NCBI GenBank assembly: GCA_021773245.1
Contig: JAJFKK010000038.1
Coordinates: 102 to 64,101, forward strand
DNA: 64,000 nucleotides
Reading direction: 5' to 3'
Source: Gammaproteobacteria bacterium
GTDB lineage: Bacteria; Pseudomonadota; Gammaproteobacteria; Eutrophobiales; Eutrophobiaceae
Below are positions 38,996-60,808 of this stretch, piece by piece. The notes beneath the pieces were generated by a model that worked only from the letters and a program-made list of their open reading frames with translations, was not told where the DNA came from and did no database searches. The translations under genes were made by a program, and so were the position numbers. Each line of letters opens with the position of its first letter. Position 1 is the stretch's first letter.

Positions 38996-39029
38996 CTTTT
39001 AAAGCCGTTCTGAATAAGGCAAAGTAAAT
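38996..39029 (+). repeat. 34-nt junction motif, copy b
   Basis: CTTTTAAAGCCGTTCTGAATAAGGCAAAGTAAAT, ends 2 nt before the mltC ATG. Confidence 0.6.
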
Positions 39030-39031
39030 TC

Positions 39032-40204: not shown

Positions 40205-40226
40205 AACCACAGATTTAATTGAAACT

Positions 40227-40667
40227 ATGACAAACATATGTCCCTGCGAACAAGGTGAATTGCGAAGCGAGAGAGGGCAGCCTGGGCTGAGCGGAAAACC
40301 ATTTGAAAAATGTTGCGAACGTTTTCTAAATGGAAGTGCTAACGCAACAACTCCAAAACAACTCATGCGCTCAAGATACACCGCTTATGCATTAGGCAAC
40401 TATGGCGAATATTTACTAGCAACATGGTTACCCGAAAAAAGAATAGGACTGACCGCCGAATCGCTATCTGAAAAAAGGCTGGAGTGGGTAAAATTAGAAA
40501 TACTCAATAGCCATCAAACAGGCGATGCAGGCAGGGTTGAGTTTAAGGCTTATTATAAAACGGATGATGAAGAACTAAATATTCTGCATGAAAAATCGAC
40601 TTTTCGAAGAATTGATAGGCGTTGGTACTATGTTGAAGGCGAGGTAAAACAGGAAAATACTGAATAA
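40227..40667 (+). CDS. ychJ: YchJ-family (UPF0225, SEC-C motif) protein with a 14-aa insertion in the N-terminal zinc knuckle
   Basis: 146 aa; CPC..[14 aa]..SGKPFEKCC, LMRSRYTAY, RWYYVEG. Confidence 0.75.
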   Translation: MTNICPCEQGELRSERGQPGLSGKPFEKCCERFLNGSANATTPKQLMRSRYTAYALGNYGEYLLATWLPEKRIGLTAESLSEKRLEWVKLEILNSHQTGDAGRVEFKAYYKTDDEELNILHEKSTFRRIDRRWYYVEGEVKQENTE

Positions 40668-40688: not shown

Positions 40689-41186
40689 TTATTCAAATAA
40701 TTTCTCAATTGTTGAGATAAGTAAAAATAGTTTTAAATCTTGATTAGGCAAATTAATAAAACCATAACTTTCATAAAAAGATTTAGCCTTTTCATTAATC
40801 GAATCAACAATGATGCACTTTATTCCCATTTCATTAGAAGTAAGATAAATTCGCTTTAATGCATTAAAGAGTAGACGTTCACCCAAGCCTGTACCTTGCA
40901 TTTTTAAATCAACAGCTAATCTTGATAATCGAGCTGCGGGTACCGGGTAACGGGGCAGTTGTTTTGAAATATTTTCAGGTAATTCTTCAAAGTTAATTGA
41001 AGCTGAACAAATCGAATAATATCCCTGTATTATTTTTTCATCATCATCAATGGCTACAAAGGTTCTGGAAATACTTTTTTTATCGTTCTGCCGTGCGTAA
41101 CGAATGAGATAGTCGTTAAGTGATTTAACACCACAATCAAAATTATTTCGTATATGAGATTTTTCTAGAAGCTCGATGATGTACAT
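40689..41186 (-). CDS. GNAT acetyltransferase toxin (TacT/KacT-like)
   Basis: 165 aa; F.CG...LN.YL, RLAVD...QG.GLG..LL..AL, downstream of a DUF1778 gene. Confidence 0.8.
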   Translation of the reverse strand: MYIIELLEKSHIRNNFDCGVKSLNDYLIRYARQNDKKSISRTFVAIDDDEKIIQGYYSICSASINFEELPENISKQLPRYPVPAARLSRLAVDLKMQGTGLGERLLFNALKRIYLTSNEMGIKCIIVDSINEKAKSFYESYGFINLPNQDLKLFLLISTIEKLFE

Positions 41187-41263
41187 GGAAGTATGAATGT
41201 CGTGTTAAACAGGGATGTTGATAGCGACCCTGAGCATCGTATACATTCCTTAGTGCAAGATTA

Positions 41264-41548
41264 TTAATTAATATTTTCTGTACGATATTTCTCTGCGGCA
41301 CGACGAAGCTTGGCATTGGGTGCTGGTGGATTAGTAAGGGCATTTAGAAAGACATCGCGTCCTTCATTGTTCAACTCAATTCGCTCTTGTTGTTCAATTA
41401 ATCTGGTTGCTCTATCCCGAACTGATTCAATCATGAAAGCACTCATTGTTGTTCCTGCAACCTCGGCAGCACGCGCGACCAATGCCTTGATATCTGCACT
41501 TATGCGTAAATCAAATCGTTCATCTCTACTATGATTGTCATTCTTCAT
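41264..41548 (-). CDS. DUF1778 RHH antitoxin (TacA/KacA-like)
   Basis: 94 aa; R.ERFDLRIS...K.L..RAA...G.T...F; pairs with the GNAT toxin. Confidence 0.8.
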   Translation of the reverse strand: MKNDNHSRDERFDLRISADIKALVARAAEVAGTTMSAFMIESVRDRATRLIEQQERIELNNEGRDVFLNALTNPPAPNAKLRRAAEKYRTENIN

Positions 41549-42022: not shown

Positions 42023-43393
42023 ATGAAACCAGAAACGATAGACAGTGTTATTTCGCCGGTTAAAGGCATGGATATATTGTCCAGGATTGAAGTCAGTCAC
42101 TTACTGGATAATAGTCAGAACGGTCTTTATTCAATATTTAGAAATTGTGCCTTAGCCGTTCTCAACAGTGGCGTTGCTATTGATGACAGTAAACAATTAT
42201 TTGAAAAGTATGCTGACTTTGATATCCGTGTTGTTCAGGTCGAAAGAGGGATAAAGCTGCAATTAACGGCGGCACCAGCGACAGCCTTTGTCGACGGTAA
42301 AATCATACGCGGTATTAAAGAACATCTATATGCCGTATTGCGCGACATTGTTTATATCTTTGAAGAAATTAAAGATAAGACCGATGTTGACCTGAATACC
42401 TCCGAAGGAATTAGTAATGCTGTTTTTCATATCTTGCGTAATGCGGATGTATTGCACGGCGGCGTCGAACCCAATCTTGTCGTTTGTTGGGGTGGACATG
42501 CGATTAGTCGAGAAGAATATGACTATGATAAGGAAGTCGGTTACGAATTAGGCTTGCGCAAATTTGATATTTGTACCGGTTGTGGTCCCGGTGCGATGAA
42601 AGCACCAATGAAAGGTGCCAATGTCGCCCATGCGAAACAGCGTGTTAAAAAAGGAATTTATCTCGGCATTACCGAGCCGGGAATCATAGCGGCAGAGTCA
42701 CCTAATCCCATAGTGAATAATTTGGTTATTATGCCGGATATAGAAAAGCGTCTCGAAGCTTTTGTCCGCTGTGCACATGCTATTATCGTTTTCCCGGGTG
42801 GTGTCGGTACCACAGAAGAAATATTATATTTACTCGGAATTTTACTGCATCCAGATAATGCAAAAATACCCTTTCCTTTAATCTTTACCGGGCCGGAATC
42901 TTCCAGAGACTATTTTGAAAAAATAAATGAATTCATTTCAGCAACACTCGGCCCAGAGGCGCAAAAGCATTATCAAATTATTATTAACGATCCAATTGCA
43001 GTAGCCAGAGAAGTAAAAAAAGGCATAGCCGAAGTAAAAGAGTTTCGAGTTGAACATGGCGATGCATTCTATTTTAACTGGCTATTAAAGATACAACGTG
43101 AGTTTCAGCTTCCCTTCATTGCCGACCATGACAATATGCGTTCATTAGAATTATACAAAGATATGCAGGTACACATCTTGGCTGCAAACCTACGCCGGGC
43201 ATTTTCAGGCATCGTCGCCGGCAATGTTAAAAGCGAAGGCATGCGCGAGATAGAAGAACACGGCTTATTCGAAATACATGGCGATGAACAGATTATGAAT
43301 GCAATGGATAGCTTATTAAGCGCATTCGTTGAACAAAAACGCATGAAAGTGTCTGCAGAAAGCTACAAACCTTGTTATCGGATTGTTAAGTAA
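42023..43393 (+). CDS. ppnN: Nucleotide 5'-monophosphate nucleosidase PpnN (LOG family, YgdH)
   Basis: 456 aa; colinear with my recollection of E. coli PpnN (VVCWGGH.I, ICTGCGPGAM.APMKGA, IMPDIEKRLEAFVR, FPGGVGT.EE.LYLLGIL, LRRAFSGIVAGNVK). Confidence 0.9.
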   Translation: MKPETIDSVISPVKGMDILSRIEVSHLLDNSQNGLYSIFRNCALAVLNSGVAIDDSKQLFEKYADFDIRVVQVERGIKLQLTAAPATAFVDGKIIRGIKEHLYAVLRDIVYIFEEIKDKTDVDLNTSEGISNAVFHILRNADVLHGGVEPNLVVCWGGHAISREEYDYDKEVGYELGLRKFDICTGCGPGAMKAPMKGANVAHAKQRVKKGIYLGITEPGIIAAESPNPIVNNLVIMPDIEKRLEAFVRCAHAIIVFPGGVGTTEEILYLLGILLHPDNAKIPFPLIFTGPESSRDYFEKINEFISATLGPEAQKHYQIIINDPIAVAREVKKGIAEVKEFRVEHGDAFYFNWLLKIQREFQLPFIADHDNMRSLELYKDMQVHILAANLRRAFSGIVAGNVKSEGMREIEEHGLFEIHGDEQIMNAMDSLLSAFVEQKRMKVSAESYKPCYRIVK

Positions 43394-43743: not shown

Positions 43744-44352
43744 ATGTCTGAATCAATTAAAATTGCTGAAAAAATAATAGAACTCGCTAAAGAACAAGGA
43801 GTTATCCAAGTTCGTGATCTACGAGAAAGAGATATACACCCTGAATATCTTCGGCGGCTTTGCGAAAAAGGTAGCCTTGTGAAACTAGCCAGAGGGCAAT
43901 ATGCGCTTCCTGATCTAAATATTAGCGAAAATCATAGTCTGGTCCTAACTGCAAAATCAGCACCTAATGCAATCATATGTCTGGTATCTGCACTGCGCTT
44001 TCATAATATAGGAACTCAAGCGCCTTATGAGATTTGGATTGCCATAAAAAATAGAACAGCCAAACCTCAGGTCAGATATCCTAAGATTCGAGTTTTTTAT
44101 TACTCAGGAATGGCGTATTCAGAAGGCGTCGAAGAACACATAATCGAAAGAGTGAATGTAAAAATATACAGTCCGGCAAAAACAATTGCAGATTGTTTTA
44201 AATATCGAAATAAAATCGGAATTGATGTGGCTATTGAAGCACTACGTGATGGATGGCATGAAAATAAATTCAATATGGATGAACTATGGCATTACGCAAA
44301 AATATGTCGTGTGGCTAATATTATGAAACCCTATCTGGAATCGCTAACATGA
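43744..44352 (+). CDS. abiEi: AbiEi-family type IV antitoxin/transcriptional regulator
   Basis: Start at MSESIK; wHTH (VIQVRDL......PEYLRRL...G.L.KLARG.Y.L) typical of AbiEi; 4-nt overlap with abiEii. Confidence 0.8.
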   Translation: MSESIKIAEKIIELAKEQGVIQVRDLRERDIHPEYLRRLCEKGSLVKLARGQYALPDLNISENHSLVLTAKSAPNAIICLVSALRFHNIGTQAPYEIWIAIKNRTAKPQVRYPKIRVFYYSGMAYSEGVEEHIIERVNVKIYSPAKTIADCFKYRNKIGIDVAIEALRDGWHENKFNMDELWHYAKICRVANIMKPYLESLT

Positions 44353-45225
44353 CTAAGGAAGCAAAAAAGGATATTGCAGCTTCAGTACGGCAACGATTAT
44401 TAAATATAGCCAAAGAACAAGAAGAAGATTTTAATTTAATTCTGACGCGATATGGATTGGAGCGAATGCTCTATCGATTAAGTCAATCAGAATGGCGGGA
44501 TAAATTTTTACTTAAAGGAGCGATGTTATTTGCGCTCTGGCATGATGAACCACATCGACCTACACGCGATGCTGACTTTTTAGGTTTTGTAAATCCCGAC
44601 ATTGATAACATAACAGCCATCTTTCAATCCTTATGTAGTATTACTGTAGATGATGATGGATTGAAATTCGATCCAGAAACGGTGACAGCAGAAGAGATTA
44701 GAGAAAATCATGCTTATGAAGGCATTCGCGTACATTTAAGTGGAGAGCTATCTGGAGCCAAGATAATATTACAAATTGATATTGGCTTTGGTGATGTAGT
44801 AACGCCAGATCCGGATGAAATTGAATATCCAACATTATTAGATCAAGAAGTGCCGAAGCTTAAGGCTTATCCTGTATATACAGTCATTGCTGAAAAATTT
44901 GAAGCGATGATAAAGCTTGGAATGATAAATACGCGAATGAAAGATTATTTATAATCTATGGATATTGTTACAAAAATTTGAATTAGAAAGCCAGCTTCTT
45001 GAGGAAGCAATAAAAGCAACGTTCGATAGAAGAAAAACAGAAATACCAAAAGAAAAGCCTTTGGCCTTTAGCGAAGAATTTTATGATGACGATACAAAGA
45101 AAAAACAGTGGGCAGCATTCTTAAATAAAAATAGCATTAATAACACTGTGGAACTAAATGAGCTTGTTAAAAATTTAGGAGAATTTCTAATTCCAATAGT
45201 AAAAGCAATAAGCACTAAAAAATAA
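44349..45225 (+). pseudogene. abiEii: AbiEii/AbiGii nucleotidyltransferase toxin, disrupted by a frameshift near 44950
   Basis: ORFs 44349..44954 and 44965..45225 are N- and C-halves of one ~290-aa AbiEii; the other frame across the break reads KIIYNLWILL, restoring the family RMKD.YD.W motif. Confidence 0.75.
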
Positions 45226-47427: not shown

Positions 47428-50190
47428 ATGCCTACTAATAGAGAAAAAGTTCTAAATTATTTAAACAAGATTTCACCCGGCAGAGCAACCAATAACGATA
47501 TTCTTATAGCTACTGAGATAGAACCTCATCAACAAGTTTTTCAGATCACCGACAATTTGTTCCAATCGGGACAAATTCAAGGAGTAAAAAATGGTAAGGA
47601 GTGGTCGTTTTGGATTGATGAAAATTCAATAAGCGGCGACTCAGTCAATCCTGAAACAGTGAGTGCTAATATGAATCCATTAATTCGCGAGTTATTTCTT
47701 AAATATAAAGCTAATCCTAATGAAGTTTGGGTTTCTGAATATGAAGAAAGAATTAATCAAGTTAGAACATTTCGGAATAAACCAGCGTCGTTTTTAACTG
47801 AAAAAGTTTTGCACGAACTGTGGATGCAAAAAGCGAATGGTATCGCTAATGTAGGACTTGGTTTTATGTATCAAAGTGAGTTTGATGCGTTACAGGAACA
47901 GTTGCCTGAAATAACGATTAAAATTATAAATGAGCCGACCTCTGTAAAACTTGATGAGATAGAAGTTTGGGCTAAACAGCAAAAAGATTTTGGGAATCTA
48001 AAGCATATTACCTGGTCAGTAATCTATCGTGTTTTCGCTGCAGCTAACCCAGATGAGCTATGTACAATAGTTAATAAAGCAAATCTAGACCAATTAATTA
48101 AAACTCTTAATGAAAATTATGGTTTTAATATTTCCACTCAAGGAAATTGGTTTGACAGAAACTCAGCCTTGCTGAAATCCTTAAAGCAAGGAGAATTAGC
48201 TAATCAAGAAGTACATTTGATAAATACCTTTCCATGGATGCTTTATGAGTGGTTAGTGGTACAAGCTCCTGAAAGAAATGCCAGCTTATCAATGGAACAT
48301 GTGATTAGTGCAATAAATGAAATTGATGAACGCGGTGTTAATTCTGGTGAAAAGTCATCTACCTACGATCTCATTCATAATGTAAGGTGTTATCCGCCTA
48401 AACTAGTCTATTCCCTAGCGCATAAATATAAAGATGGAACAGAACTCGATCGATCTGCATTTGAGGGAGGAGAAAATACGCAATGCTTTAGTGACTTACG
48501 TGGTCTTGGCTTTATCATTGAGCGTAAGGATTTTGTTTCTGAATTACTTAAGAAATTTATTCAACAAGCTGATGAAGGCGCTAGTTTAACTACAAGAGAT
48601 TATCCTAAAACGTATTGTGGGTTAGATGTTAATGTAAGTTTTGGCCAGGGCAACTTTTCAAAGGTGCCCTGGATATCATTTTTAGGATATGGTCAAAAAA
48701 CACAGAATGGTATATACCCTGTTTATCTATATTATAAAACTATCAAGGTCCTAGTACTTGCATACGGCGTAAGTACAACAAATGAACCAGAAGTAGTATG
48801 GAAATTTCATGATCATAAAGAAACAATCCGGGATCATTTAGCAAGTGAATATGATTTTCAATTAGAAAAATATGGTTATTCTTATGTTTATTCTTCATAT
48901 CATTTGCCTACTAACCTCACTGATCCTCAAGTCACTCTGGATTTAGACACTGTGATTGCTGAATACCATAAACTGATGGGCGGTACACCAACAGTTTCTC
49001 CCGCTCCTGTTCCGCCAGAACCTGAGCCACCTGTAGAACCAATCTTAGATCCTGAAGCTATATCCAAATCATTTTCTGCTGCTCTGAGTAATTCGAATGT
49101 TCGTTTTGGTGAATCCCATGATGCTAGAGTTAGTGCTTTCGTTTCAAGCTTGATGACAAAACCTCTAGTTATTCTCACCGGCTTGTCTGGTTCAGGCAAA
49201 ACGCAAATCGCCATCCGTTTTGGGGAGTGGCTAGGTAAGGATCGAATGTTAGTAGCGCCAGTTCGTCCTGATTGGACAGGTGCAGAGGCGCTATTTGGAT
49301 ACGAAGATGCACTAAAGCCAATAGTTAATGGCAGAGCTTCTTGGGCTGTGCCAGATACATTAGCATTTATACTCAAAGCTTCGAATAACCCACATTGGCC
49401 GTATTTACTTGTTTTAGATGAAATGAACTTGGCTCACGTCGAACGATATTTTGCCGATGTGTTATCTGGAATGGAATCTGATCAACCTTGCTTGCCTAAT
49501 TTAATTCAAGAGAGTGATGGTTGTTGGCGTATTGCTGATCATGGTCCTGATAAAATTACATTTCCTAAGAATATATTTGTTGTCGGTACGGTAAACGTTG
49601 ATGAAACGACTTATATGTTTTCACCAAAAGTACTCGATCGAGCCAATACGTTTGAGTTTCGGGTGACCACCGATGACTTGGCTGATGATTATATTAAACC
49701 TATACAATGCAAACCAGGTGAAATCGGATTGGTCAGAGGGTTTTTGGAAGTTGGGCGTGATGATGCATGGCATAGTCAGAATGTCTTTACAGAAGCAACA
49801 GATCTTTCTCAACAACTGCGCCATGTACATAGCATGTTAGCTGCACATGGATTTGAGTTTGGCCATCGGGTATTTTATGAGTCCCAACGCTTCGCTGCAA
49901 TTTATGGTGCCACTGGAGAATTCAATTTATCAAATGTATTAGATTTGATTGTGATGCAAAAACTATTGCCACGATTACACGGTTCTCGTCGCCGACTTGA
50001 AGAACTGCTGCGTGCCTTTGCAAAATTTTGTTTTAATAACACCATCGAAACAAAAGAGGAAAGCATAGCCTCAATATTTGAGCCGGAGGATAAAAATACT
50101 GCCGATGCAAAATTGCCCGTTTCATTTGATAAGTTAAAACGTATGTTACGTAGTTTACGAGCCAATCAATTTACGAGTTTTACGGAATAA
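47428..50190 (+). CDS. McrB-like AAA+ GTPase with long N-terminal extension (wHTH, YPPK-type module, DUF3578/MrcB_N-like module)
   Basis: 920 aa; Walker A GLSGSGKT, Walker B/McrB signature LLVLDEMNLAHVERYFADVLS, GTVNVDETT...S.KVLDRA; residues ~390-450 GQGNFSKVPWISFL...GIYPVYLYY resemble DUF3578. Confidence 0.8.
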   Translation: MPTNREKVLNYLNKISPGRATNNDILIATEIEPHQQVFQITDNLFQSGQIQGVKNGKEWSFWIDENSISGDSVNPETVSANMNPLIRELFLKYKANPNEVWVSEYEERINQVRTFRNKPASFLTEKVLHELWMQKANGIANVGLGFMYQSEFDALQEQLPEITIKIINEPTSVKLDEIEVWAKQQKDFGNLKHITWSVIYRVFAAANPDELCTIVNKANLDQLIKTLNENYGFNISTQGNWFDRNSALLKSLKQGELANQEVHLINTFPWMLYEWLVVQAPERNASLSMEHVISAINEIDERGVNSGEKSSTYDLIHNVRCYPPKLVYSLAHKYKDGTELDRSAFEGGENTQCFSDLRGLGFIIERKDFVSELLKKFIQQADEGASLTTRDYPKTYCGLDVNVSFGQGNFSKVPWISFLGYGQKTQNGIYPVYLYYKTIKVLVLAYGVSTTNEPEVVWKFHDHKETIRDHLASEYDFQLEKYGYSYVYSSYHLPTNLTDPQVTLDLDTVIAEYHKLMGGTPTVSPAPVPPEPEPPVEPILDPEAISKSFSAALSNSNVRFGESHDARVSAFVSSLMTKPLVILTGLSGSGKTQIAIRFGEWLGKDRMLVAPVRPDWTGAEALFGYEDALKPIVNGRASWAVPDTLAFILKASNNPHWPYLLVLDEMNLAHVERYFADVLSGMESDQPCLPNLIQESDGCWRIADHGPDKITFPKNIFVVGTVNVDETTYMFSPKVLDRANTFEFRVTTDDLADDYIKPIQCKPGEIGLVRGFLEVGRDDAWHSQNVFTEATDLSQQLRHVHSMLAAHGFEFGHRVFYESQRFAAIYGATGEFNLSNVLDLIVMQKLLPRLHGSRRRLEELLRAFAKFCFNNTIETKEESIASIFEPEDKNTADAKLPVSFDKLKRMLRSLRANQFTSFTE

Positions 50191-50193
50191 ACA

Positions 50194-52485
50194 ATGCCTG
50201 CCTGCGAAGCAACGCAGTTAGCTGTTTTAGATCAAGCCAATATTGCTCGCGCTTGTATTAGTTTGTCATTATTACCAAATAAAAAGTCGGATAAGAACCT
50301 CGTTCCGCCCTTAATCGTCTTAGATAAACATTCTGAATCAAACGCAGTTCCCCCAGTTCAATTACTTGAAGGTTGTGAATACCGCTATGAGTTTATTGAA
50401 TTAAAAGATATCAAGGGCGTAATCACAACCGATCATGCTGATGTCTTTCAGCCTGATACAAACGATGGTCGAAGTGGGCGAGTTCGGCCGGAACTGTATA
50501 CGGGGACGCTTCCAATTAGAGTCTTTCTCGATGGGAAAGATTTTGGTTCCTTCTCCCTTGAGGTGCGTTCTAGAAAACTAGATTATTTAAAAGAATACCG
50601 ATGGATGGTCAGGGATCTGGCTGAGCAAATGTCAGAAATAGTAATGAATCGTTTTGCACCTGCAATTCAACGTTTCAGTATAGATGACACAAAAGATGCG
50701 CAAACGCTTTATCAACGGTTTGCTTTTCTTAAATCTTTAATTGGCAGTGAAGAATTTCAAGCTGCTTTAAGTGAGATTGTTCATCATCCTCATGTTGCCT
50801 GGATTGATTTTCATGAGCCTGTACATCCGAGCAAGGGACTCAAAGCGGGTTCCTATGTCTCCCGTCAATTGGCCAAGAGTGGTCCAAGGCAAGAATGGAA
50901 ACATGGAATTATCTCAACCATTCCTCAAAATATTTATCGACATATAACAGAAGTAACTGTTGATACCACGCCGAATCGATTCGTTAAGTTTGCTATTGAA
51001 CGTTGGCGCGATGTGGTGGCAAGAATTGGTGAGTTACTTGCTGCGCAATCACAGAATCCAGTAATTGATAGGGGTGTACGGGAAGTAATTGAAATCCTTG
51101 ATTATCTCGATGCTATTTTAGCTGAAGGTTTGTTTAGAGAATTAGGAACGCTCGATAACTTTCCTGCAGATAACCAAGTGCTGCACAAACGGGAAGGTTA
51201 TCGAGATGTGTTTCGAGCCTATATCCAATTTGATGTGGCGGCAAAGTTATCATGGGATGGCGGCGAAGATGTTTATGGCGCGGGTAAACAAGACGTTGCG
51301 ACTTTATATGAATATTGGGTCTTCATGAAACTAGCGCAATTGATTTCTGAACTTTGTGATACGCCTTTTAAATTTTCTGATTTGATTAAGGTTGAAGAGG
51401 ATGCTTTAAATGTAATCCTTAAAAAAGGGAGGCGATGTGTATTGAAAGGGATTGTAGAACGCCGCGGGCGAATGATGGATGTGGAGCTCTGGTTCAATCG
51501 TACCTTTGGCAATAGAGCTCAAGGTGAAGGTTCTTGGTCACGACAAATGCGACCGGATTATTCACTAAAGATTTCCCCATCGAAAGATGAAGTTGCTCAT
51601 TTTGAGCCGGTTTACGTGCATTTTGATGCCAAATATCGAATTGACCGAATAGAAGATGTATTTAGGCCAGGCGAAGAAGATAGCTCTGAGTATGAAGTAA
51701 CTAACAGTAATTCGCCTGCTGCTACTGCAAAACGTGATGATCTATTAAAAATGCATGCCTATCGAGATGCTATACATCGTTCAGCCGGCGCCTATGTTTT
51801 ATACCCTGGTACTGAAGTAAAGGTGTATCGAGAATATCATGAACTCCTACCTGGCTTGGGGGCATTTGCCTTAAGACCTACCGAAGATGGAGAGGCAGCA
51901 GGCAAACTACCCTTGGAACGATTCATCGAAGATGTGCTTGAGCATGTTGCTTCTCAGATCACTCAGCATGAGCGAGGGCGATATTGGGTTAAAGAAGCTT
52001 ATGCCGAACAAGATTATTTCACTAGCGAAATACCTGCGGCATCTTTTCTAAAGCACCCTCCAGCAGATACGCAAGTGTTATTAGGTTACGTTAAGAATAA
52101 GAAGCATTGGGACTGGATAGAGAAAAACAAACTTTATAACGTTAGAGGCTACGGTAAAAGAGGGAAGATTGGATTAGGCTCAAAAGAACTGGGTTCGGAC
52201 ATAATTCTCTTGTCATGCCCTAGCGAAAAGCTAGTAGCAATTGCACGAATCATTGGTTCACCTGAATTGCATACCAAAGAAGAGATGGAAGAAAATAATT
52301 ATCCTAAACCAAAAGGAATTTACTATTGTTTCAATTTGGAAATGATTATTGATGAATATTGGTGTGGATTTGTAAGCAGTGAATTGATTGAAAAAGTACG
52401 GTCTACATTAACTCCCAATAAAGAGCCTATTGTTATGTCATGGTTAAAATTGATTCGAAGTATAGAAGTAAAAAATGACGTATAG
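50194..52485 (+). CDS. McrC-like PD-(D/E)xK nuclease with DUF2357-like N-terminal region and extra C-terminal module
   Basis: 763 aa; starts 3 nt after the McrB-like stop; LYEYWVF, RPDYSL, VHFDAKYR (D-x-K), LLKMHAYRDAI, AYVLYPG. Confidence 0.7.
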   Translation: MPACEATQLAVLDQANIARACISLSLLPNKKSDKNLVPPLIVLDKHSESNAVPPVQLLEGCEYRYEFIELKDIKGVITTDHADVFQPDTNDGRSGRVRPELYTGTLPIRVFLDGKDFGSFSLEVRSRKLDYLKEYRWMVRDLAEQMSEIVMNRFAPAIQRFSIDDTKDAQTLYQRFAFLKSLIGSEEFQAALSEIVHHPHVAWIDFHEPVHPSKGLKAGSYVSRQLAKSGPRQEWKHGIISTIPQNIYRHITEVTVDTTPNRFVKFAIERWRDVVARIGELLAAQSQNPVIDRGVREVIEILDYLDAILAEGLFRELGTLDNFPADNQVLHKREGYRDVFRAYIQFDVAAKLSWDGGEDVYGAGKQDVATLYEYWVFMKLAQLISELCDTPFKFSDLIKVEEDALNVILKKGRRCVLKGIVERRGRMMDVELWFNRTFGNRAQGEGSWSRQMRPDYSLKISPSKDEVAHFEPVYVHFDAKYRIDRIEDVFRPGEEDSSEYEVTNSNSPAATAKRDDLLKMHAYRDAIHRSAGAYVLYPGTEVKVYREYHELLPGLGAFALRPTEDGEAAGKLPLERFIEDVLEHVASQITQHERGRYWVKEAYAEQDYFTSEIPAASFLKHPPADTQVLLGYVKNKKHWDWIEKNKLYNVRGYGKRGKIGLGSKELGSDIILLSCPSEKLVAIARIIGSPELHTKEEMEENNYPKPKGIYYCFNLEMIIDEYWCGFVSSELIEKVRSTLTPNKEPIVMSWLKLIRSIEVKNDV

Positions 52486-52869
52486 ATGTCTATGTCAAAA
52501 ACAGATTGCCCTTTTTGTAATATATCTAATTCTGAAATTTTAATTCGGAACGAGTTATGTTATGCGCGATTGGATCTGTATCCAGTTTCTGAAGGCCATG
52601 TTTTGATTATTCCGTTTCGTCATTTTTCAAATTATTTTGATGTTACACAAGATGAAAAAAATGCCATTTGGTCTCTTGTAGATGAAATGAAACAAGTCAT
52701 CAGACAGGAACACAGTCCAGATGGTTATAATATCGGGATGAATGTAGGTCGAGCAGCAGGACAAACTGTCCCCCACTTACATGTTCATATCATTCCAAGA
52801 TACGAAGGCGATGTTGAGAATCCTAAAGGTGGCGTTCGAGGAGTGATACCGGTCAAACAAAAATATTAG
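52486..52869 (+). CDS. HIT-family nucleotide hydrolase/transferase
   Basis: 127 aa; histidine triad HLHVHIIP; CPFC N-terminus; ATG directly abuts the McrC-like stop (TAGATG). Confidence 0.85.
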   Translation: MSMSKTDCPFCNISNSEILIRNELCYARLDLYPVSEGHVLIIPFRHFSNYFDVTQDEKNAIWSLVDEMKQVIRQEHSPDGYNIGMNVGRAAGQTVPHLHVHIIPRYEGDVENPKGGVRGVIPVKQKY

Positions 52870-52885
52870 TTTTCTAATTAATTTA

Positions 52886-53038
52886 ATGAAACTTTTTACA
52901 CAAAATAAAGAGCAAATAAAGACCTTTGACGACTGGGCCAATATTTTTCTAGGTACTAAAAAGGCCAAGCATTGGAAAGAGGGACGCAGTGCTTACTCAA
53001 TTGCTGTCTTTATTATGAATCATAATGGCCAAGCGTAG
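52886..53038 (+). pseudogene. 50-codon ORF, probable truncated gene remnant
   Basis: MKLFTQNKEQIKTFDDWANIFLGTKKAKHWKEGRSAYSIAVFIMNHNGQA-stop; the HWK.GRSA..A motif looks like the N-terminus of a longer family; assignment uncertain. Confidence 0.3.
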
Positions 53039-53092
53039 TTTATGCTGGTGAAGAAATAATTATCACTAATAATTTATAAAACGAGATAAATA

Positions 53093-56000
53093 ATGCATAG
53101 GGAAAGTGGCATATCACGAACATTTGACCTCTTCGCAGAAGAAGAGAAGATTGATAGTCATAAGATCCCGGGTTGGCCTTCCTACGCACGTTTCCCACTT
53201 AACATAGACGGCTATCATGTTGAAGATGTTGTTTTAAATGATCTAAAATCCAGTAAATCACCACTCATCATTACAGGTTTTGCTAGTTTAGATAACCTTA
53301 TTGATTTTTGTTTTGATGCCCATATAAATAATCCAAAAATTCATACACGATTACTAATTGGTCAGGAACCTTTTCCTTCTCGTAGAGAAACCTTTTCAGT
53401 TAACCAAAACCATTTGACTGAAGAAGTAGAAGCCTATTGGTTGGAACGTGGCATTTCATTGATTTATTCAGCCAAGTTAATTCATATGGTTGAGCTATTA
53501 AAGAATGGAAAAATTGAAGCGCGATATATGCCTGGTAGTCGGCGTCTTCATGCAAAGATATATTGTGGCGATGAAGCAGCAACGGTTGGTTCATCCAATT
53601 TTACCCATCCGGGACTAAAAGGACAGATTGAAGCTAATGCTCGTTTTGAAAAAGATGGGCGTTCTAGTCGGTTTGAAGAACTCACTACCATAGCTGAAAA
53701 TTATTGGACGTTGGGAAGAAGTTACCAGGATCAACTAATCGAATTATTAGAAAAATTATTACGCGTTGTAACATGGGAGGAAGCTTTAGCGCGAGCTTGT
53801 GCTGAGCTATTAGAAGGTGAGTGGGCGGAAAAATATATTCGAGGTGAATACTTATCGGGTTCAGGTAGTTTATGGCCTTCCCAAAAACAGGGTATAGCGC
53901 AAGCACTTACAATATTATCGACTCAAGGTAGTGTTTTAATCGCTGATGCTACCGGTGCTGGGAAAACCAAGATGGGTACTTACTTAATAGGTGCTGTGCA
54001 GGATCATATCTTACGTACAGGCAGAATGCGTCAAGGTAAAGCATTAATGATTTGTCCTCCAACAGCAGAATCAAATTGGAAACGGGAATCAAACTTATCA
54101 GGTGTTGCTTTAGATCCTTATTCACATGGAATTTTCAGTAATGAGAGAACAAAAGGACATGATGATACTGTTGATGCTCTACGTAGAGCGCAAATCCTTT
54201 CAGTTGATGAAGGGCATAACTTCCTTAATTTTAAATCTCAAAGAACTCAAAAACTATTAAGAAATATGGCAGACCATGTCATGTTGTTTACTGCTACGCC
54301 AATTAATAAAAGCGTGAATGACCTACTGAGAATGGCCGATATGCTTGGTGCCGATAATTTATCTGAATCAGTTATTTCGGCATTTAAGAAGATGTTAGGT
54401 GTTCGAAATCTGAGTAGACAATTATCAGAGAAAGAACTTGATGAGTTAAGGACGGAAATAAAAAAATTTACAGTTCGACGTACAAAGAAGCAGTTGAATA
54501 AGCTTGTTGATAGAGAGCCGGATAAATATACAGATATTAATGGTAAGCAATGCCGTTTTCCGAAGCATTTGCCAAAAGTCTACAGTCTATATGAATCTGA
54601 TGATGATAAAGAAATTGCAAATAAAATAAAAAAACTAGCAAGTGAATTATATGGCGTCACTCATTTTGTTAAAACAATTAAAATGCCTGATATTTTTATT
54701 AAACAAGGTTTGACAGAAGAAAAATATTTACAAGGGCGTTTGGCTTCGGCAAAAAGTTTAGCCCGATATATGATCATGTCTTGTTTAAGGTCATCACGAG
54801 CAGCACTGATTGAGCATGCTGTTGGTACAGATGAAGCAATTGAGTTTAGTCAAATAACGGGTTTTCATAAAAGCAACAAAAGCAAAGGGATGACGGAGCA
54901 AATAAAATCAATAAAAGATAAGTTGCCCGAGAATCAATTAAGCATCGACCTTCCTCTATGGTTAACTAATAAAAAAGATCATGGAGATGCTTGTGCTAAT
55001 GACTTCAGAATTTATAGAAAAATTGCTGATCTTGCAGCGCACATGAGTGATAGTAGAGAAATATCTAAGGCTAAAAGATTAATGAGCTTATTAAAAAAGC
55101 ATGATCTTGTTTTAGCATTTGATAGGAAGCCAATTACTTTAGCTGTCATTAATCAAAAAATAAGTCTTAATAAAGATAATAGGGTGCTTGTTGCATGGGG
55201 AGAAAAAGGGAGTGACAAGGATAAAGTTATAAAAACATTTGCATTTGGTTCAGAAGAAAAAGGTGTTATCGGTCTTTGTTCAGATAGTCTTGCCGAAGCA
55301 GTAAATCTTCAACAGGCATCGTGTTTATTACACTTGGATATGCCAAGTGTAGTTCGGATAGCCGAGCAGAGAGCTGGAAGAATAGACCGTATGGATAGTC
55401 CCCATAAGAATATAGAAATATGGTGGCCGGATGATGCGGAAGAATTTTCATTGACATCCGATGAACGATTTATTGAACGATATGACACAGTAGAAAAATT
55501 ATTAGGTTCAAATATGCCTTTGCCAGAAATTATGAAACGGCACAGTAGAAAAGTAGTAACGACAAAAGACATGATTGAAGAAGTTGAGTTAAAAGAAAAT
55601 ATTTGGGATGGAATAGACGACGCATTTTCATCCGTTCGTTCATTAGTTGAAGGTGAAACTGCTATAGTTTCTACAGAAGTATACGAAAGGTATGTATCCG
55701 TTAAAGAACGTGTTTTATCAAGAGTGAGTCTTGTTAGATCTCATTCTCCGTGGGCATTGTTTTGTATTACATCAGGTAGTTTCGGTTCGCCAACATGGGT
55801 ATTACTTCCTAGTTTAGGTGGGCAGGCAGAAACAGAACTTAGTCGTATTGTTGATAAAATACGTAAGCGTTTAACTGATGACGTGGAAGATGTGAAGCTT
55901 GATGAGAATAGTGCAAAGTTACTGGATCATTTTTTAAATCGACTGTCTGTAAGTGAACGGAGTTTATTGTCCAGAAAGAAACAAAGAGCATTGGAAGAAA

Positions 56001-56335
56001 TGGAACTTATAATTGGTAAGCTAAAAACAAAGAGTGAGAGTAAAAAACATATTGATCACTTGCTAGATGTTGAGAAGATGTTAACTAATCCACCAAAAGA
56101 TAAACAGCCAGATTGGGATGAAGTTGCTTCTAGATGGCTGGATGTGATTAGGCCAGTTTGGTTTGATAAATTAAATAATCCTAGAAACAAACCACTTCTT
56201 TTAAAAGATATTCGAAATGAACTGATGAAAGAACCTAAATGGCTAGTGAGTGAAATTGTAGAACATTTTAGACGTTTTCCGATATTGCCTGGGCCAGAAG
56301 AAAGGATTAAGGCTTGTATTATTGGTGTGAATTAA
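53093..56335 (+). CDS. PLD (HKD) nuclease domain fused to SF2 (SNF2/DEAD-like) helicase
   Basis: 1080 aa; single HKD motif HAKIYCGDEAATVGSSNF (H153); helicase motifs ADATGAGKT, DEGHNF, TATPINKS, QRAGRIDR; ~280-aa uncharacterised C-terminus. Confidence 0.8.
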   Translation: MHRESGISRTFDLFAEEEKIDSHKIPGWPSYARFPLNIDGYHVEDVVLNDLKSSKSPLIITGFASLDNLIDFCFDAHINNPKIHTRLLIGQEPFPSRRETFSVNQNHLTEEVEAYWLERGISLIYSAKLIHMVELLKNGKIEARYMPGSRRLHAKIYCGDEAATVGSSNFTHPGLKGQIEANARFEKDGRSSRFEELTTIAENYWTLGRSYQDQLIELLEKLLRVVTWEEALARACAELLEGEWAEKYIRGEYLSGSGSLWPSQKQGIAQALTILSTQGSVLIADATGAGKTKMGTYLIGAVQDHILRTGRMRQGKALMICPPTAESNWKRESNLSGVALDPYSHGIFSNERTKGHDDTVDALRRAQILSVDEGHNFLNFKSQRTQKLLRNMADHVMLFTATPINKSVNDLLRMADMLGADNLSESVISAFKKMLGVRNLSRQLSEKELDELRTEIKKFTVRRTKKQLNKLVDREPDKYTDINGKQCRFPKHLPKVYSLYESDDDKEIANKIKKLASELYGVTHFVKTIKMPDIFIKQGLTEEKYLQGRLASAKSLARYMIMSCLRSSRAALIEHAVGTDEAIEFSQITGFHKSNKSKGMTEQIKSIKDKLPENQLSIDLPLWLTNKKDHGDACANDFRIYRKIADLAAHMSDSREISKAKRLMSLLKKHDLVLAFDRKPITLAVINQKISLNKDNRVLVAWGEKGSDKDKVIKTFAFGSEEKGVIGLCSDSLAEAVNLQQASCLLHLDMPSVVRIAEQRAGRIDRMDSPHKNIEIWWPDDAEEFSLTSDERFIERYDTVEKLLGSNMPLPEIMKRHSRKVVTTKDMIEEVELKENIWDGIDDAFSSVRSLVEGETAIVSTEVYERYVSVKERVLSRVSLVRSHSPWALFCITSGSFGSPTWVLLPSLGGQAETELSRIVDKIRKRLTDDVEDVKLDENSAKLLDHFLNRLSVSERSLLSRKKQRALEEMELIIGKLKTKSESKKHIDHLLDVEKMLTNPPKDKQPDWDEVASRWLDVIRPVWFDKLNNPRNKPLLLKDIRNELMKEPKWLVSEIVEHFRRFPILPGPEERIKACIIGVN

Positions 56336-56432
56336 GAGGTAATCTTTCCTAAAGTTACCTTGAAAATACCCGATAAACCCCTATATAAAGGTTGACAAAA
56401 GTTGACGAATTAAGAGAGAATACGCCCCGTTT

Positions 56433-57560
56433 ATGGATAAAACCCTTAGAATAGAAGCAATAAAGCAAGCCATGGATAAGGCTGGCCTTAACCAAGCTGC
56501 GCTCTCTGCAAAGCTGAGTGTTTCAAAAGAAATCGTTTCCAAATGGCTTAGTGGTGTTAAGTTCCCGCGTCCAGATAAATTACTTAGATTATCTAGTGCT
56601 TTGGAATTAAATTACGATGAACTCGTTGAGATTATTTCTCAGGTTAATGAACCGATAATAGCTTTTCGTAAAAAAGGTAGTACAAAAACAACAGAAAAAC
56701 ATATTAATAGAGCTAAAAATATAGGTCGTTTGTTATCTTGTTTAGTTTCTTATTTGCCCTTTGATGAATTTGTTCAGCCATCAAAATTAAAAAATCCCAA
56801 ACTTGAGTATGAATATGTTCAATCCTTTACTTTTAAAGTTCGTAAAGAAATAGGATTGCGAATAGATCAGGTAATTGATTTTACTGATTTAATTCATACA
56901 TTTCATGAATTACAGGCAGTAATTGTCCCTGTTATGTGGGGAAAGAAGAATGTACATGAAAATGCACTTCATATTTATTTGCCTGATTCAATGACGACTT
57001 GGGTTTATTTGAACTTAGATACAGAGTTACATGATTTTAAGTTTTGGATGGCTCATGAATTAGGTCATGTATTTAGTCCTGATCTAAGAGGAAATGAAGC
57101 AGAAGATTTTGCTGATGCATTTGCCGGAGCATTATTATTCCCTCAAGAATTGGCCAAGCAGGCATATAAAAGTATATCTTCAAGTAAAAGCGATAAAATA
57201 AGAATTTCTAAAATTAGAGACTATGCACTTGAATATTCAATATCTTTAATCTCTGTATATAAAGAAATTAATAATTATGCTATTTATAATAGTTTGCCTA
57301 AGATAGATTTAGGAAATAGTTTGTTTGGGGCAAATACAAATTTTAATAAAATGTTTGCAACTGTAAGTGGTTCATTATTTGAAAATGAATCTCCAAATGC
57401 TGAAGATTATATTCAAAGAACTTCAGATGTTTTTGAAACTCCTTTTTTTGATACTTTGAAAAAGTATCTAGTTGAACACGGAAAGTCAGCAAGTTATGTA
57501 CAGTCTATTCTTGATACTCCGCTAATTGACGCAAAGGAACTGTATGCGGAGTTGACTTGA
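56433..57560 (+). CDS. XRE HTH fused to ImmA/IrrE (M78) metallopeptidase
   Basis: 375 aa; N-terminal HTH (LNQAALSAKLSVSKEIVSKWLSG), HExxH motif MAHELGHVF. Confidence 0.8.
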   Translation: MDKTLRIEAIKQAMDKAGLNQAALSAKLSVSKEIVSKWLSGVKFPRPDKLLRLSSALELNYDELVEIISQVNEPIIAFRKKGSTKTTEKHINRAKNIGRLLSCLVSYLPFDEFVQPSKLKNPKLEYEYVQSFTFKVRKEIGLRIDQVIDFTDLIHTFHELQAVIVPVMWGKKNVHENALHIYLPDSMTTWVYLNLDTELHDFKFWMAHELGHVFSPDLRGNEAEDFADAFAGALLFPQELAKQAYKSISSSKSDKIRISKIRDYALEYSISLISVYKEINNYAIYNSLPKIDLGNSLFGANTNFNKMFATVSGSLFENESPNAEDYIQRTSDVFETPFFDTLKKYLVEHGKSASYVQSILDTPLIDAKELYAELT

Positions 57561-58120
57561 TGTCGCAGTCAAAAATTCTAATTGATAGTAATTCCTATTT
57601 TAGATTAGCCAAAAGTATACACCCGCTTTTGAATGAGGTGTTTGGTGAATTAGAATATTGTTTATATGTACTAAAGGAACTGGAAAAAGAATATGACCGA
57701 AACCCTCGTTTAAAAACTAAGTTTCATTGGGTAAATGAAGATGAATATTTTCAGAATAGAAAAAAGAAAGTAAATATTTCAAATAAAGAAAAAAAAGAAA
57801 TAGAAAGGACTATAGGATTTTTAGAAGGATATAAAAATGACAATTGCTTAGGAACTTCTCCAATAGATATAAAATATCTAGCAACGGCTTTTATTTTAGA
57901 TATACCTGTTGTAACAGATGATATAGATATGCTTAACCTAGGAAAAGCATTTGATATTGTAACTATGACTAGTATGGACTTGCTGAAGTTAATGTTAGAA
58001 AGCGATCATATAAACATTGAAAAAGTAAGAGAAACAGTATCGTATTGGAAATATATAAAAGATATACCAGCAAACTATAAAAAGAATTACAAAAAATTAT
58101 TTAAAGAAAATGCTCCTTAA
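57560..58120 (+). CDS. PIN-like (DUF4411-like) putative nuclease/toxin
   Basis: ATG overlaps the ImmA stop (TGATG); ILIDSNSYF N-terminus and VVTDDIDM acidic motif consistent with a PIN-like fold. Confidence 0.55.
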   Translation: MSQSKILIDSNSYFRLAKSIHPLLNEVFGELEYCLYVLKELEKEYDRNPRLKTKFHWVNEDEYFQNRKKKVNISNKEKKEIERTIGFLEGYKNDNCLGTSPIDIKYLATAFILDIPVVTDDIDMLNLGKAFDIVTMTSMDLLKLMLESDHINIEKVRETVSYWKYIKDIPANYKKNYKKLFKENAP

Positions 58121-58305: not shown

Positions 58306-59298
58306 TCAAGCAAAATTCTTATCAAATGGCATACCACTTTTCAAAACCCCATAAATAATGTGAACGAGTTTTCGCATAGCAGCACCAACAATCGCCATTT
58401 TAGATTTACCTGCTTTTGTTAATCGCAACTTTAATTCTATGATTAATGGGTTATGTTTTAACGCGACTAATGCCGGCATAAAGAAGGCCTTGCGTAAATT
58501 AGAACGCCCCATCTTTGACATCCTTGCACGTGAACGTAATGACGTTCCGGATTCTCGTGTTTTCGGTGCAACGCCAATAAATGCCGCCAAGGCTTTTGCA
58601 TTTTTGAATTGAGTGATGTTACCAAACTCGGAAAGAATGACATTGATAGTGGCTTCACCAATGCCTGGAATGCTTTCCAGTAATACTTTTCTTTTCTTCA
58701 TATCGGGGTGATCATCGATGTGTTGTTTAATCATTTTCTTTACCTTCTTTATCTCTTTATCAAGATACGCAAGGTGATGATGTAGTTGTTCTGCAATGAG
58801 ATCACTGGCACCTTCAAGCCGATTACTTTCTTGTCGATGCATATTTCCCAATGCCTCTAAGCGTCGTACCAGGTCACGACATTGGCGTATTTCCACTGGT
58901 AGTGGTTGCCAGAGCGAGGGCTCCAGTGCGAGACAAAAACGCGCAATCAAACTCGCATCAACTTTGTCTGTTTTAGTACGCAGTTGTTCACTTTGTGCAA
59001 AGCCTTTGACACGCGCTGGATTGACAATACTAATATTTATTTCGTTGTCATATAAATATTCAGCTAAGGCTTCACCATAAACACCAGTGGCTTCCATACA
59101 CGCATGCAGTTCCTGAGCATCGTGTTTACTGAGCCAAGCCAGTAATGTTTGATAGCCTTTTGTATTATTAAAGAATTTCTTGTGTTTTAGTTTGTTACCT
59201 ATCAATAGCGCAACATCAAACTTCTGTTTGTATATATCGATACCCAGTGTTGTTTTGGTTGTTATCATTGTTCTGCTTACCTCGTGATGCAGGTTCAT
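58306..59298 (-). CDS. IS110-family DEDD transposase/recombinase
   Basis: 330 aa; LGIDI.K, MEATG.YGE, VNPARVKGFA, KTDKVDA, SIPGIGE, G..P....SG. Confidence 0.9.
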   Translation of the reverse strand: MNLHHEVSRTMITTKTTLGIDIYKQKFDVALLIGNKLKHKKFFNNTKGYQTLLAWLSKHDAQELHACMEATGVYGEALAEYLYDNEINISIVNPARVKGFAQSEQLRTKTDKVDASLIARFCLALEPSLWQPLPVEIRQCRDLVRRLEALGNMHRQESNRLEGASDLIAEQLHHHLAYLDKEIKKVKKMIKQHIDDHPDMKKRKVLLESIPGIGEATINVILSEFGNITQFKNAKALAAFIGVAPKTRESGTSLRSRARMSKMGRSNLRKAFFMPALVALKHNPLIIELKLRLTKAGKSKMAIVGAAMRKLVHIIYGVLKSGMPFDKNFA

Positions 59299-59986: not shown

Positions 59987-60808
59987 CTAGCGCCAGGACG
60001 CCGGGTCCAGATTATAGAATCTTTTCAGTTGTACATATAAGTCCGGCAATTTTTTCTGCATCTGTCTGGGTTTTTCGAAGAAGGATTCTGTTGCTACGGC
60101 AAAGAATTCCGCTGGCGAGACTGCGCCGTATTCATCGATAACAGAATTTTTCCCTTTTTCTACTCTAATCAATAGTGATTCATATTCTTTGCTTAGCACT
60201 TTGGCCCATTCTGCGTAATGGGAAATGTCGCGAAGTACCGGCAGGCCATCCATGCTGTCATTTGCCTCATCCAGCTTATGGGCGAATTCATGTAGCACGA
60301 CATTGTGTCCTTCATTACTATTTTTTGTTCCGCGCATAACATCTGCCCACGATAAGACGATGGGGCCACGGTGCCAGGACTCGCCTGCTCTTACGCTTTC
60401 TTTTTCGGTTACAAGCAAGCCATGATAATGGATTTCCTTGCTGACATAGGTATTCGGATAAACCAGGATAGAGGTAAAGCCCGGAAAGCATTCTTTATCC
60501 CGTTGTAACAGGAGCAGGCAGGCATTCCCGGCGATGGTGATGCGGATCTCGTCGGTGATCTCCAAACCCGCACAGCCAAAGAATTCTTTTTCATCAAGGA
60601 AGATATTGATGCGGCCATACAGTTCTGGGCGCAGGTCTTCCGGCAGCAAGGCGTAGAGTGTGACGTTACGTTCCAGTAACGGCATCCATTCGGGAGGTAA
60701 TGGTTTTAGGAACAGCCTGTTGCGTCGGGCGCGTTGTAATCGTGAGTGACTCACCCAGATCAGGATGATGATAACGATTATGCTGAATAAGATAAGGATA
60801 GGGGACAT
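59987..60808 (-). CDS. mtfA: MtfA-like M90 zinc peptidase
   Basis: 273 aa; N-terminal TM, HEFAHKLD zinc motif, GPIVLSW, SPAEFFAV.TE.FF as in E. coli MtfA. Confidence 0.8.
   Translation of the reverse strand: MSPILILFSIIVIIILIWVSHSRLQRARRNRLFLKPLPPEWMPLLERNVTLYALLPEDLRPELYGRINIFLDEKEFFGCAGLEITDEIRITIAGNACLLLLQRDKECFPGFTSILVYPNTYVSKEIHYHGLLVTEKESVRAGESWHRGPIVLSWADVMRGTKNSNEGHNVVLHEFAHKLDEANDSMDGLPVLRDISHYAEWAKVLSKEYESLLIRVEKGKNSVIDEYGAVSPAEFFAVATESFFEKPRQMQKKLPDLYVQLKRFYNLDPASWR

Follow-up and report, generated by a model that had tools for sequence, protein, structure and literature searches.

We analyzed a window of 64,000 nucleotides (nt) from contig JAJFKK010000038.1 of a gammaproteobacterial genome (assembly GCA_021773245.1), in which four co-oriented genes at positions 47428–56335 encode an McrB-like GTPase, an McrC-like nuclease, a HIT-family protein and a fusion of a PLD-type nuclease with an SNF2-type helicase. 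The original prediction, made from the letters of the window, had proposed these genes as a candidate undescribed composite defense system of three or four components. The region is described here as a module A (47428–52869) and a module B (53086–58105), which contain the following features.

47428–50190, + strand: McrB-like AAA+ GTPase subunit, NxD(E) variant, 920 amino acids (aa); first gene of module A
50194–52485, + strand: McrC-like nuclease subunit, 763 aa, with DUF2357 at residues 95–343, PDDEXK_7 at 370–541 and a predicted YTH/EVE-like domain at ~620–763
52486–52869, + strand: HIT-family nucleotide hydrolase/transferase, 127 aa; facultative third gene of module A
52886–53038, + strand: 5' remnant of a DUF6946 gene, a 50-codon open reading frame (ORF) inside the 223-nt gap between the HIT and helicase genes
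53093–56335, + strand: PLD(HKD)-nuclease/SNF2-helicase fusion, 1080 aa; first gene of module B
56433–57560, + strand: HTH(XRE) and M78 peptidase protein, RmrA-like (Pfam HTH_3 and Peptidase_M78); module B
57557–58120, + strand: weakly PIN-like protein of 187 aa, putative toxin partner; last gene of module B

The physical description given in the original prediction agrees with what lies in the window. The four ORFs have the expected coordinates and a common orientation, the McrB and McrC genes are joined through TAA-aca-ATG with a 3-nt gap, and the start codon of the HIT gene abuts the stop codon of the McrC gene (TAG-ATG). The named catalytic residues were all found, namely K591 of McrB, D478 and K480 of McrC, the HLHVH motif of HIT, and H153 of the helicase, and the 223-nt gap with its remnant ORF is present. 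A promoter and terminator scan of 46.3–58.4 kb returned fewer promoter-like sites than shuffled sequence and was uninformative. No NCBIfam model reached its cut-off for any of the four proteins.

The McrB-like protein aligns with E. coli McrB over residues 372–729 (PDB 6ut6, E = 1.6e-41), and its residues ~568–730 form the AAA+ GTPase portion that is alignable to PDB 6ut6 and 6hz4. This portion contains a Walker A motif GSGKT (K591), a Walker B motif LDEMN at 663, and the sequence GTVNVDETT at 720–728, in which the sensor motif reads NxD-E instead of the canonical NxxD; the pattern GTVN[VI]DE[TS]T is kept in 75 of 77 family members. Since the canonical NxxD signature is replaced by NxD-E, we assigned the protein to the NxD variant branch, outside the canonical clade. 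The NCBIfam McrB model scores it at 145.9 bits against a cut-off of 637, and the PADLOC model PDC-M26A matches it with an E value of 3e-43, best across the AAA+ region; the literature searched contained no description of PDC-M26.

Residues 1–370 were searched against 1.84 billion representative proteins, which resolved this segment into three independently occurring modules. With the DNA-binding domain that follows, the N-terminus of McrB is thus occupied by four globular modules.

47434–47664, + strand: residues 3–79, small N-terminal module, also present as stand-alone proteins of 70–150 aa
47680–48267, + strand: residues 85–280, domain of ~200 aa with matches at positions 3–700 of proteins of 210–1160 aa
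48283–48537, + strand: residues 286–370, ScoMcrA N-terminal "head"-like module, a promiscuous N-terminal domain
48538–49002, + strand: residues 371–525, MrcB_N/DUF3578, homologue of the 5-methylcytosine (5mC)-binding DNA domain of E. coli McrB

The fourth module matches PDB 3ssc (E = 8.9e-34), PDB 8ik4 (E = 3.3e-33) and Pfam MrcB_N (E = 9e-9). For the third, the segment profile matches residues 4–94 of ScoMcrA (5zmm_A) with an E value of 8e-4, many of its matches in the representative library lie at the N-termini of proteins of 95–1181 aa, and the precomputed PF26345 ScoMcrA_N annotation in relatives agrees with the assignment. The profile of residues 85–280 found nothing credible in the PDB, and residues 3–79, which gave no Pfam match, can be called winged-helix-like only as a guess. 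The ~560 extra N-terminal residues ascribed to this protein in the original prediction thus include additional modules as proposed, but residues 371–525 are the canonical McrB DNA-binding domain seen in 3ssc, which leaves ~370 residues as the true extension.

The McrC-like protein shows Pfam matches to DUF2357 (E = 2e-47) and PDDEXK_7 (E = 1.5e-35), and its nuclease residues D455 and D478-A-K480 are invariant in 25 homologues. Searches of the PDB by sequence and of NCBIfam gave no match, and no PADLOC model matched. The family comprises 3547 proteins at E ≤ 1e-5, of ~760 aa and from many phyla, and among the matches listed the homologues are aligned over nearly the whole length, C-terminal module included. 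The structure of this last module was predicted with AlphaFold2 and compared with known structures by Foldseek.

52051–52482, + strand: C-terminal YTH/EVE-like (PUA-like) predicted modified-base reader of McrC

The model of residues 596–763 has a mean predicted local distance difference test score (pLDDT) of 82.4, with most of the core above 90. Nearly all of the 50 best Foldseek matches listed from the PDB are YTH domains (Mmi1, YTHDC1, Pho92), and further matches are the restriction endonuclease VcaM4I and MJECL36; the scores are modest (best E = 1.5e-3, TM score ~0.5) and the matches consistent. Five invariant aromatic residues, W641, Y648, Y703, Y710, and W750, are compatible with a modified-base pocket. 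We therefore predict, on the model, that the module is a second modified-base reader. The extra C-terminal module of ~145 aa that the original prediction had singled out does exist, but it is shared across the full-length homologues; being found family-wide, it is not a peculiarity of the window locus.

Compared with E. coli K-12 McrBC, the window pair shares the arrangement of two adjacent genes, the 3ssc-type 5mC domain, an AAA+ GTPase with Walker A and B motifs, and an McrC made of a DUF2357-type N-terminal region and a PD-DxK nuclease. It differs in the NxD(E) motif in place of NxxD, the ~370 additional McrB residues in three modules, the 763-aa McrC with its predicted YTH/EVE-like C-terminus, and the appended HIT gene; in addition, its McrB lies far below the NCBIfam cut-off and its McrC has no sequence match in the PDB or NCBIfam. 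The likeness supports, at the sequence level, a Type IV McrBC variant whose core carries extra reader modules, and this part of the original prediction stood. According to Bell et al. 2024 (PMC11090510), none of the NxD GTPases is characterized and many are associated with methyltransferases and complex McrC partners. With the non-CoCoNuT members of this branch the window shares a strict NxD followed by E (usually E or D), an McrC with added domains, and methyltransferase-linked relatives such as the locus L083 described below, whereas it has neither HEPN nor two-component genes nearby and its nuclease is intact. CoCoNuT systems are distinguished by a long coiled coil on McrB, tandem or HEPN nucleases and an often inactivated McrC. 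In contrast, the McrC nuclease of the window is intact, no HEPN domain is found in the island ORFs scanned, and no long coiled coil is evident in McrB, for which no dedicated coiled-coil predictor was run. With a 5mC reader, an intact nuclease and a second, predicted reader on McrC, the window locus is a compact example of the NxD branch and a tractable entry point to it.

To see which genes accompany the pair, we examined two sets of relatives: a distant set of 80 species-representative genome loci (33–49% McrC identity, 1.47 Mb in total) and six close relatives with 60–75% McrC identity (L174, L083, L176, L082, L177, and L178). McrB lies immediately 5' of McrC in 77 of the 80 distant loci, and in the other 3 the contig ends within the locus, so that all 77 complete loci have this order. 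No further gene family occurs in more than 5 of the 80, and McrB/McrC is, judged by these neighborhoods, the only conserved unit, a two-gene core. The 235-aa ORF upstream of the window cluster, the NERD gene, the HTH-M78 gene and the 187-aa ORF do not recur with McrBC or with the helicase in the 160 loci of this set and the helicase set introduced below, except for the HTH-M78/187-aa pair in L179. The closest comparison is with L174, which has the order McrB-McrC-HIT-DUF6946 (259 aa)-mtfA and is ~70% identical to the window in nucleotide sequence both over the McrBC-HIT stretch and over mtfA. This McrBC family is found repeatedly on the 3' side of mtfA (in the window, L174, and L177), and DUF6946 genes lie beside mtfA there, one in L174, two in L177, and the remnant in the window. 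At another close relative, L176, a Schlafen-group-3-like helicase with a C-terminal S24 peptidase domain (2707–5091) is found beside the McrBC-HIT operon.

The third gene encodes a HIT protein (Pfam HIT, E = 2.7e-27) with the motif HLHVH at 97–101 (HLHVHII at 97–103). It matches 45 HIT proteins in the PDB at E < 1e-5, and the nearest, which include Ap4A phosphorylase and Fhit, place it by homology in a Fhit/Ap4A-phosphorylase-like branch. The close relatives differ in whether HIT follows McrC, as listed here.

L174: HIT after McrC, 4-nt gap
L083: HIT after McrC, 13-nt gap
L176: HIT after McrC, 27-nt gap
L082: no HIT after McrC
L177: no HIT after McrC
L178: no HIT after McrC

HIT is thus present in 3 of the 6 close relatives other than the window, and it lies directly 3' of McrC in 3 of the 76 distant loci with enough downstream sequence. 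The whole 1.47 Mb of the distant set contains four HIT homologues; the three stand-alone ones (L022, L064, and L066) are all the immediate same-strand neighbor after McrC. The fourth makes up the N-terminal domain of a 1414-aa HIT-PLD-ResIII helicase-S24 fusion (L074, 2017–6261, − strand, in an Enterobacterales metagenome-assembled genome), which is divergent from and adjoins McrB and is matched by the PADLOC mREase_IV (SauUSI-type) model with an E value of 3.5e-94. In defense settings, HIT repeatedly precedes, or is fused to, a nuclease-type or candidate defense protein. In L022 (8387–9917), L066 (12068–13533), and L137 (240–1864, − strand), HIT is followed by HNH proteins of ~390 aa that are homologous to one another (32% identity, E = 1e-41), and this HIT-HNH cassette stands after McrC in L022 and L066 and after a Schlafen-group-3-like helicase in L137. 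The other partners are an NOV_C/PDC-S36 protein in L108, DUF6946 in L174 and, by fusion, the PLD domain in L074. Searches of the PDB gave no match for the HNH protein, its N-terminal domain included, or for the DUF6946 protein.

The original prediction had counted HIT as a third component. Its adjacency to McrC does recur (L174, L083, L176, L022, L064, and L066), but it is not conserved, as L082, L177, and L178 show. We regard HIT as a facultative accessory that is probably co-expressed and translationally coupled as the third gene of module A. A precedent exists in Thoeris, where the HIT gene thsC is an accessory in 2.4% of loci (PMC8565338). Type II Thoeris and the window have in common a small HIT protein as a low-frequency optional defense gene, and the window HIT matches the ThsC2 profile with an E value of 1.2e-14, which is a generic HIT match. 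The setting differs, with a restriction enzyme as host instead of NAD signaling and with no ThsA/ThsB, TIR or SIR2 genes. The literature searched on HIT in restriction and defense contained no link to Type IV enzymes, ThsC being the only precedent, and PMC11090510 makes no mention of HIT; the association with Type IV restriction enzymes appears to be undescribed.

The helicase behaves differently. Its Pfam domains are PLDc_2, SNF2-rel_dom and Helicase_C, with H153/K155 in the nuclease part, GAGKT at 288, and DEGH at 372, and the motifs HxK...GSSN, DATGAGKT, and DEGH are invariant in 21 homologues. No NCBIfam model reaches its cut-off (DrmD, DpdE, and phospholipD_antiphage models at 33–62 bits against cut-offs of 500–1100), and the PADLOC matches are weak. 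The C-terminal ~270 residues (812–1080) were modeled with a pLDDT of 76, and Foldseek found nothing below E ~1 in the PDB for them. The same layout of an N-terminal HKD/PLD domain and an SF2/SNF2 helicase is known from HKD nucleases with Swi2/Snf2 helicases at restriction-type loci, namely in Type-2 BREX-related systems (PMC12839542), in DISARM (DrmC plus DrmD) and in SauUSI-type enzymes. Against the Type-2 BREX-related systems, the window lacks the DUF499 ATPase, the N6-methyltransferase and DUF3780, and the likeness is one of architecture. Of the DISARM components, DrmA, DrmB and the methyltransferase are missing from the island ORFs scanned, and the DrmD model reaches 58.7 bits where 610 are required.

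Synteny with relatives bears on how the helicase came to lie behind the HIT gene. The 50-codon ORF in the gap is 56% identical to residues 19–66 of the intact 259-aa DUF6946 protein of L174 (E = 2.8e-12) and matches the N-terminal 33 positions of Pfam DUF6946 (E = 0.0012). Because it is the first part of a gene that is intact in L174, the stretch from ~53030 to mtfA must have been inserted or replaced. In L179, a genome syntenic with positions 21915–40648 of the window at 74–83% nucleotide identity, the block 53086–58105 (helicase, HTH-M78 and PIN-like genes) is found directly after ychJ at 80% nucleotide identity, with no McrBC and no HIT. A homologous 184-aa gene occupies the position of the 187-aa gene, and the homology of the block stops at 58105. 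In L173, the helicase is 88% identical in amino acid sequence, the homology is limited to 53047–56335, and the gene follows an operon of MmeI-like, DEAD helicase and T5orf172 genes. A search for target-site duplications and terminal repeats around the inserted block returned weak matches only.

The two genes that accompany the helicase in L179 look like a RosmerTA-type pair (RmrT/RmrA) by their sequence matches. The HTH-M78 protein, which is co-linear with the helicase in L179, matches PADLOC RmrA with an E value of 3.8e-13, and the small 187-aa partner ORF overlaps its gene by 4 nt. This partner departs from RosmerTA in being weakly PIN-like (Pfam PIN, E = 0.018) and in having no PADLOC model match.

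We further examined 80 metagenomic loci with helicase homologues of 39–66% identity. A DUF2357 McrC is present in 0 of the 80. The helicase lies 3' of a Type I hsdR gene on the same strand in 12 loci (adjacent in 11), several of which have canonical McrBC just upstream, and directly after an N6_N4 methylase in 9 (in four of these, a ResIII-TnsA-like protein is encoded upstream); the remaining contexts are varied. Some Type I/McrBC "immigration control" operons seem to end regularly with the helicase, and its neighborhoods suggest a promiscuous gene found preferentially at the 3' end of operons of the restriction type. Membership of the helicase in one system with McrBC, which the original prediction had considered, is not supported by the 0 of 80 helicase loci with a DUF2357 McrC or by the block without McrBC or HIT in L179. 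That the additional genes might not be conserved beside this McrBC subtype had been named beforehand as an outcome that would count against a composite system; it applies in full to the helicase and by half to HIT. Two further observations concern the helicase contexts. In L151, L155, L159, and L161 (~3–13 kb), canonical McrB, McrC, Type I HsdR and the PLD-SNF2 helicase follow one another in one orientation, with a 1592-aa ORF between McrC and HsdR in L159. Schlafen-group-3-like helicases also adjoin the PLD-SNF2 helicase, in L111 (440–2500) and L137 (1779–3767).

Taken together, these data favor, with a probability of about two in three, two independent defense modules that turnover of the island has placed side by side: module A, an McrBC variant with an optional HIT gene, and module B, a PLD-SNF2 helicase with a RosmerTA-like pair. 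The McrB-McrC(-HIT) order is genuine and recurs within an McrBC branch that has been catalogued by computation but not characterized by experiment, and the PLD-helicase is a neighbor, not a subunit. Thus, of the original prediction, the Type IV core with extra readers held, and the undescribed three- or four-component system that includes the helicase did not. In module A, McrB is expected to form a hexamer and would bind modified cytosine through its E. coli McrB-like DNA-binding domain, with the ScoMcrA-head-like module and the YTH/EVE-like domain of McrC probably broadening or tuning recognition. The NxD-type AAA+ GTPase would translocate DNA with GTP, the NxD motif probably altering how McrC stimulates hydrolysis, and the DNA would be delivered to the intact PD-DxK site of McrC, which would cut it. 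HIT, co-translated with McrC, would most likely handle a restriction-associated nucleotide-linked small molecule or DNA-end adduct, possibly a dinucleoside polyphosphate or a nucleotidylated or thio-nucleotide product. Module B was inserted into the DUF6946 gene 3' of HIT, replacing most of it, and would act independently of module A as an ATP-driven nuclease-translocase, working alone or as a generic add-on to restriction operons. The case also carries a caution: tight co-orientation in a defense island does not equal a system, and here synteny with relatives split a "four-gene system" into two cassettes.

Several observations weigh against this reading. The interval between the HIT and helicase genes contains no promoter or terminator signal in the scan. 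In L083, McrB-McrC-HIT is accompanied by a PLD-SNF2 helicase of 52% identity, 420 nt away and convergent. HIT lies near the helicase in 3 of the 80 helicase loci (L102, L108, and L137), a fusion of HIT with a PLD-helicase exists in L074, and, with the window set aside, every McrC locus that has a PLD-helicase also has HIT (Fisher p = 0.07; with L074 included, 0.006). The numbers are small and suggestive of a functional affinity between HIT and PLD-helicases; they leave room for HIT acting with nucleases generally, but they do not suggest that the four-gene operon is an evolutionary unit. The modification dependence proposed for module A is read from the homology of its reader domains only, and L083 has an HsdM-like N6 methyltransferase (PADLOC MTase_I, E = 1.6e-195) whose gene runs 8 nt into the start of McrB, an unusual arrangement for an enzyme of pure Type IV character; some members of the family may be wired differently. 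A HIT protein 77% identical to that of the window is found in a close relative, in a housekeeping-like DUF498-HIT-AKR arrangement beside mtfA with no McrBC.

A more novel reading, which we hold only tentatively, assigns HIT a larger part: as a Fhit/Ap4A-phosphorylase-like enzyme it would be a genuine recurrent partner of modification-dependent restriction enzymes and process a nucleotide-linked substrate tied to restriction, such as nucleotidylated DNA ends, thio- or amido-nucleotides released from modified DNA, or a dinucleoside-polyphosphate signal, and the helicase of the window, which replaced DUF6946, may fill the slot of a nuclease after HIT. In this reading HIT is added to NxD-type McrBC operons, joined in one protein with a SauUSI-like PLD-helicase, and paired with HNH, NOV_C or DUF6946 proteins. 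If true, modification-dependent restriction would gain a layer of nucleotide hydrolysis through HIT, in a manner comparable to ThsC in Thoeris.

It is unlikely that HIT is instead a bystander, a housekeeping nucleotide hydrolase at an mtfA hotspot with no defense role, just upstream of which McrBC was inserted. The DUF498-linked HIT just mentioned is the closest homologue with a resolved context, and its 82% nucleotide identity equals that of the flanking core genes, so its divergence is the same as theirs. Homologues of 61–64% identity stand among housekeeping genes in Kosmotoga and elsewhere, and ~95% of the distant McrBC loci have no HIT. However, the stop/start abutment or 4-nt gap is retained across ~30% nucleotide divergence between the window and L174, loci from Gemmatimonadota and Solirubrobacterales show the same adjacency, with HIT flanked by McrC and a further HNH nuclease gene, and in L074 a Type IV enzyme carries HIT as a fused domain. 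In L177, McrBC occupies the mtfA site but HIT is missing, indicating that HIT is no fixed resident there. In a neighbor-joining tree of HIT (125 aa, without support values), the McrC-linked HITs do not form one clade and the window HIT clusters with the DUF498-linked one; the tree does not have the resolution to tell co-divergence from repeated recruitment.

More doubtful still is the idea that the McrBC pair is not modification-dependent and represents the restriction half of an LlaJI-like restriction-modification system, blocked by host methylation, with its methyltransferase lost or encoded elsewhere in the genome. The methyltransferase coupled to McrB in L083 and the many methyltransferase-associated NxD GTPases (PMC11090510) speak for it. 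On the other side, McrB contains a domain closely homologous to the one with which E. coli McrB flips 5mC, and McrC has a YTH/EVE-like reader, while a methyltransferase is found neither among the island ORFs scanned nor, as far as the contigs reach, in L082, L174, L176, L177, and L178. In L083 the methyltransferase is itself preceded by a 1761-aa DUF4011/SF1 helicase/MTES_1575 protein (the region spans 1–5281), forming a methyltransferase-linked McrBC-HIT operon.

Least probable, at long odds, is a single composite system, with HIT and the PLD-helicase supplying McrBC with a second activity: the co-orientation of the four genes with no detectable terminator between them, the repeated gene content of L083, the L074 fusion beside the same McrBC family and the restriction of PLD-helicases to HIT-positive McrC loci favor it, but the helicase block interrupts DUF6946, occurs with its own downstream pair and no McrBC or HIT in L179, and has no DUF2357 McrC at any of its 80 homologous loci, the L083 helicase is on the opposite strand, and that of L074 belongs to a different, SauUSI-like family with no phmmer match to the window helicase.

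The surroundings of the cluster are those of a defense island, as the original prediction had stated. The island extends from ppnN to mtfA. The flanking genes (MltC, YchJ, PpnN and MtfA), together with a guanine-plus-cytosine content of ~37%, point to a gammaproteobacterium as the probable source. The island contains AbiEi, a frameshifted AbiEii, a NERD protein, the 235-aa ORF, the four-gene cluster, the HTH-M78 and 187-aa pair, and an IS110 element; AbiE, NERD, HTH-M78 and IS110 were all located, and the claim that no methyltransferase lies in the island was borne out among the ORFs scanned between ppnN and mtfA. The bordering features are as follows.

42023–43393: ppnN, left border of the island
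58306–59298, − strand: IS110-family transposase (Pfam DEDD_Tnp_IS110 and Transposase_20), between module B and mtfA
59987–60808, − strand: mtfA (Peptidase_M90, Pfam E = 3.8e-85), core gene

Other toxin-type genes lie in the vicinity. The AbiEii toxin gene at 44349–45225 is split into ORFs of 201 aa and 86 aa that cover profile positions 1–162 and 168–222, respectively, and is probably a frameshifted pseudogene. Just outside the island, a GNAT acetyltransferase gene beside a TacA-like antitoxin gene (40689–41548, − strand) makes up a TacAT-type toxin-antitoxin pair. A HipA-family kinase toxin gene (Couple_hipA and HipA_C) is located at 37295–38596 on the − strand.

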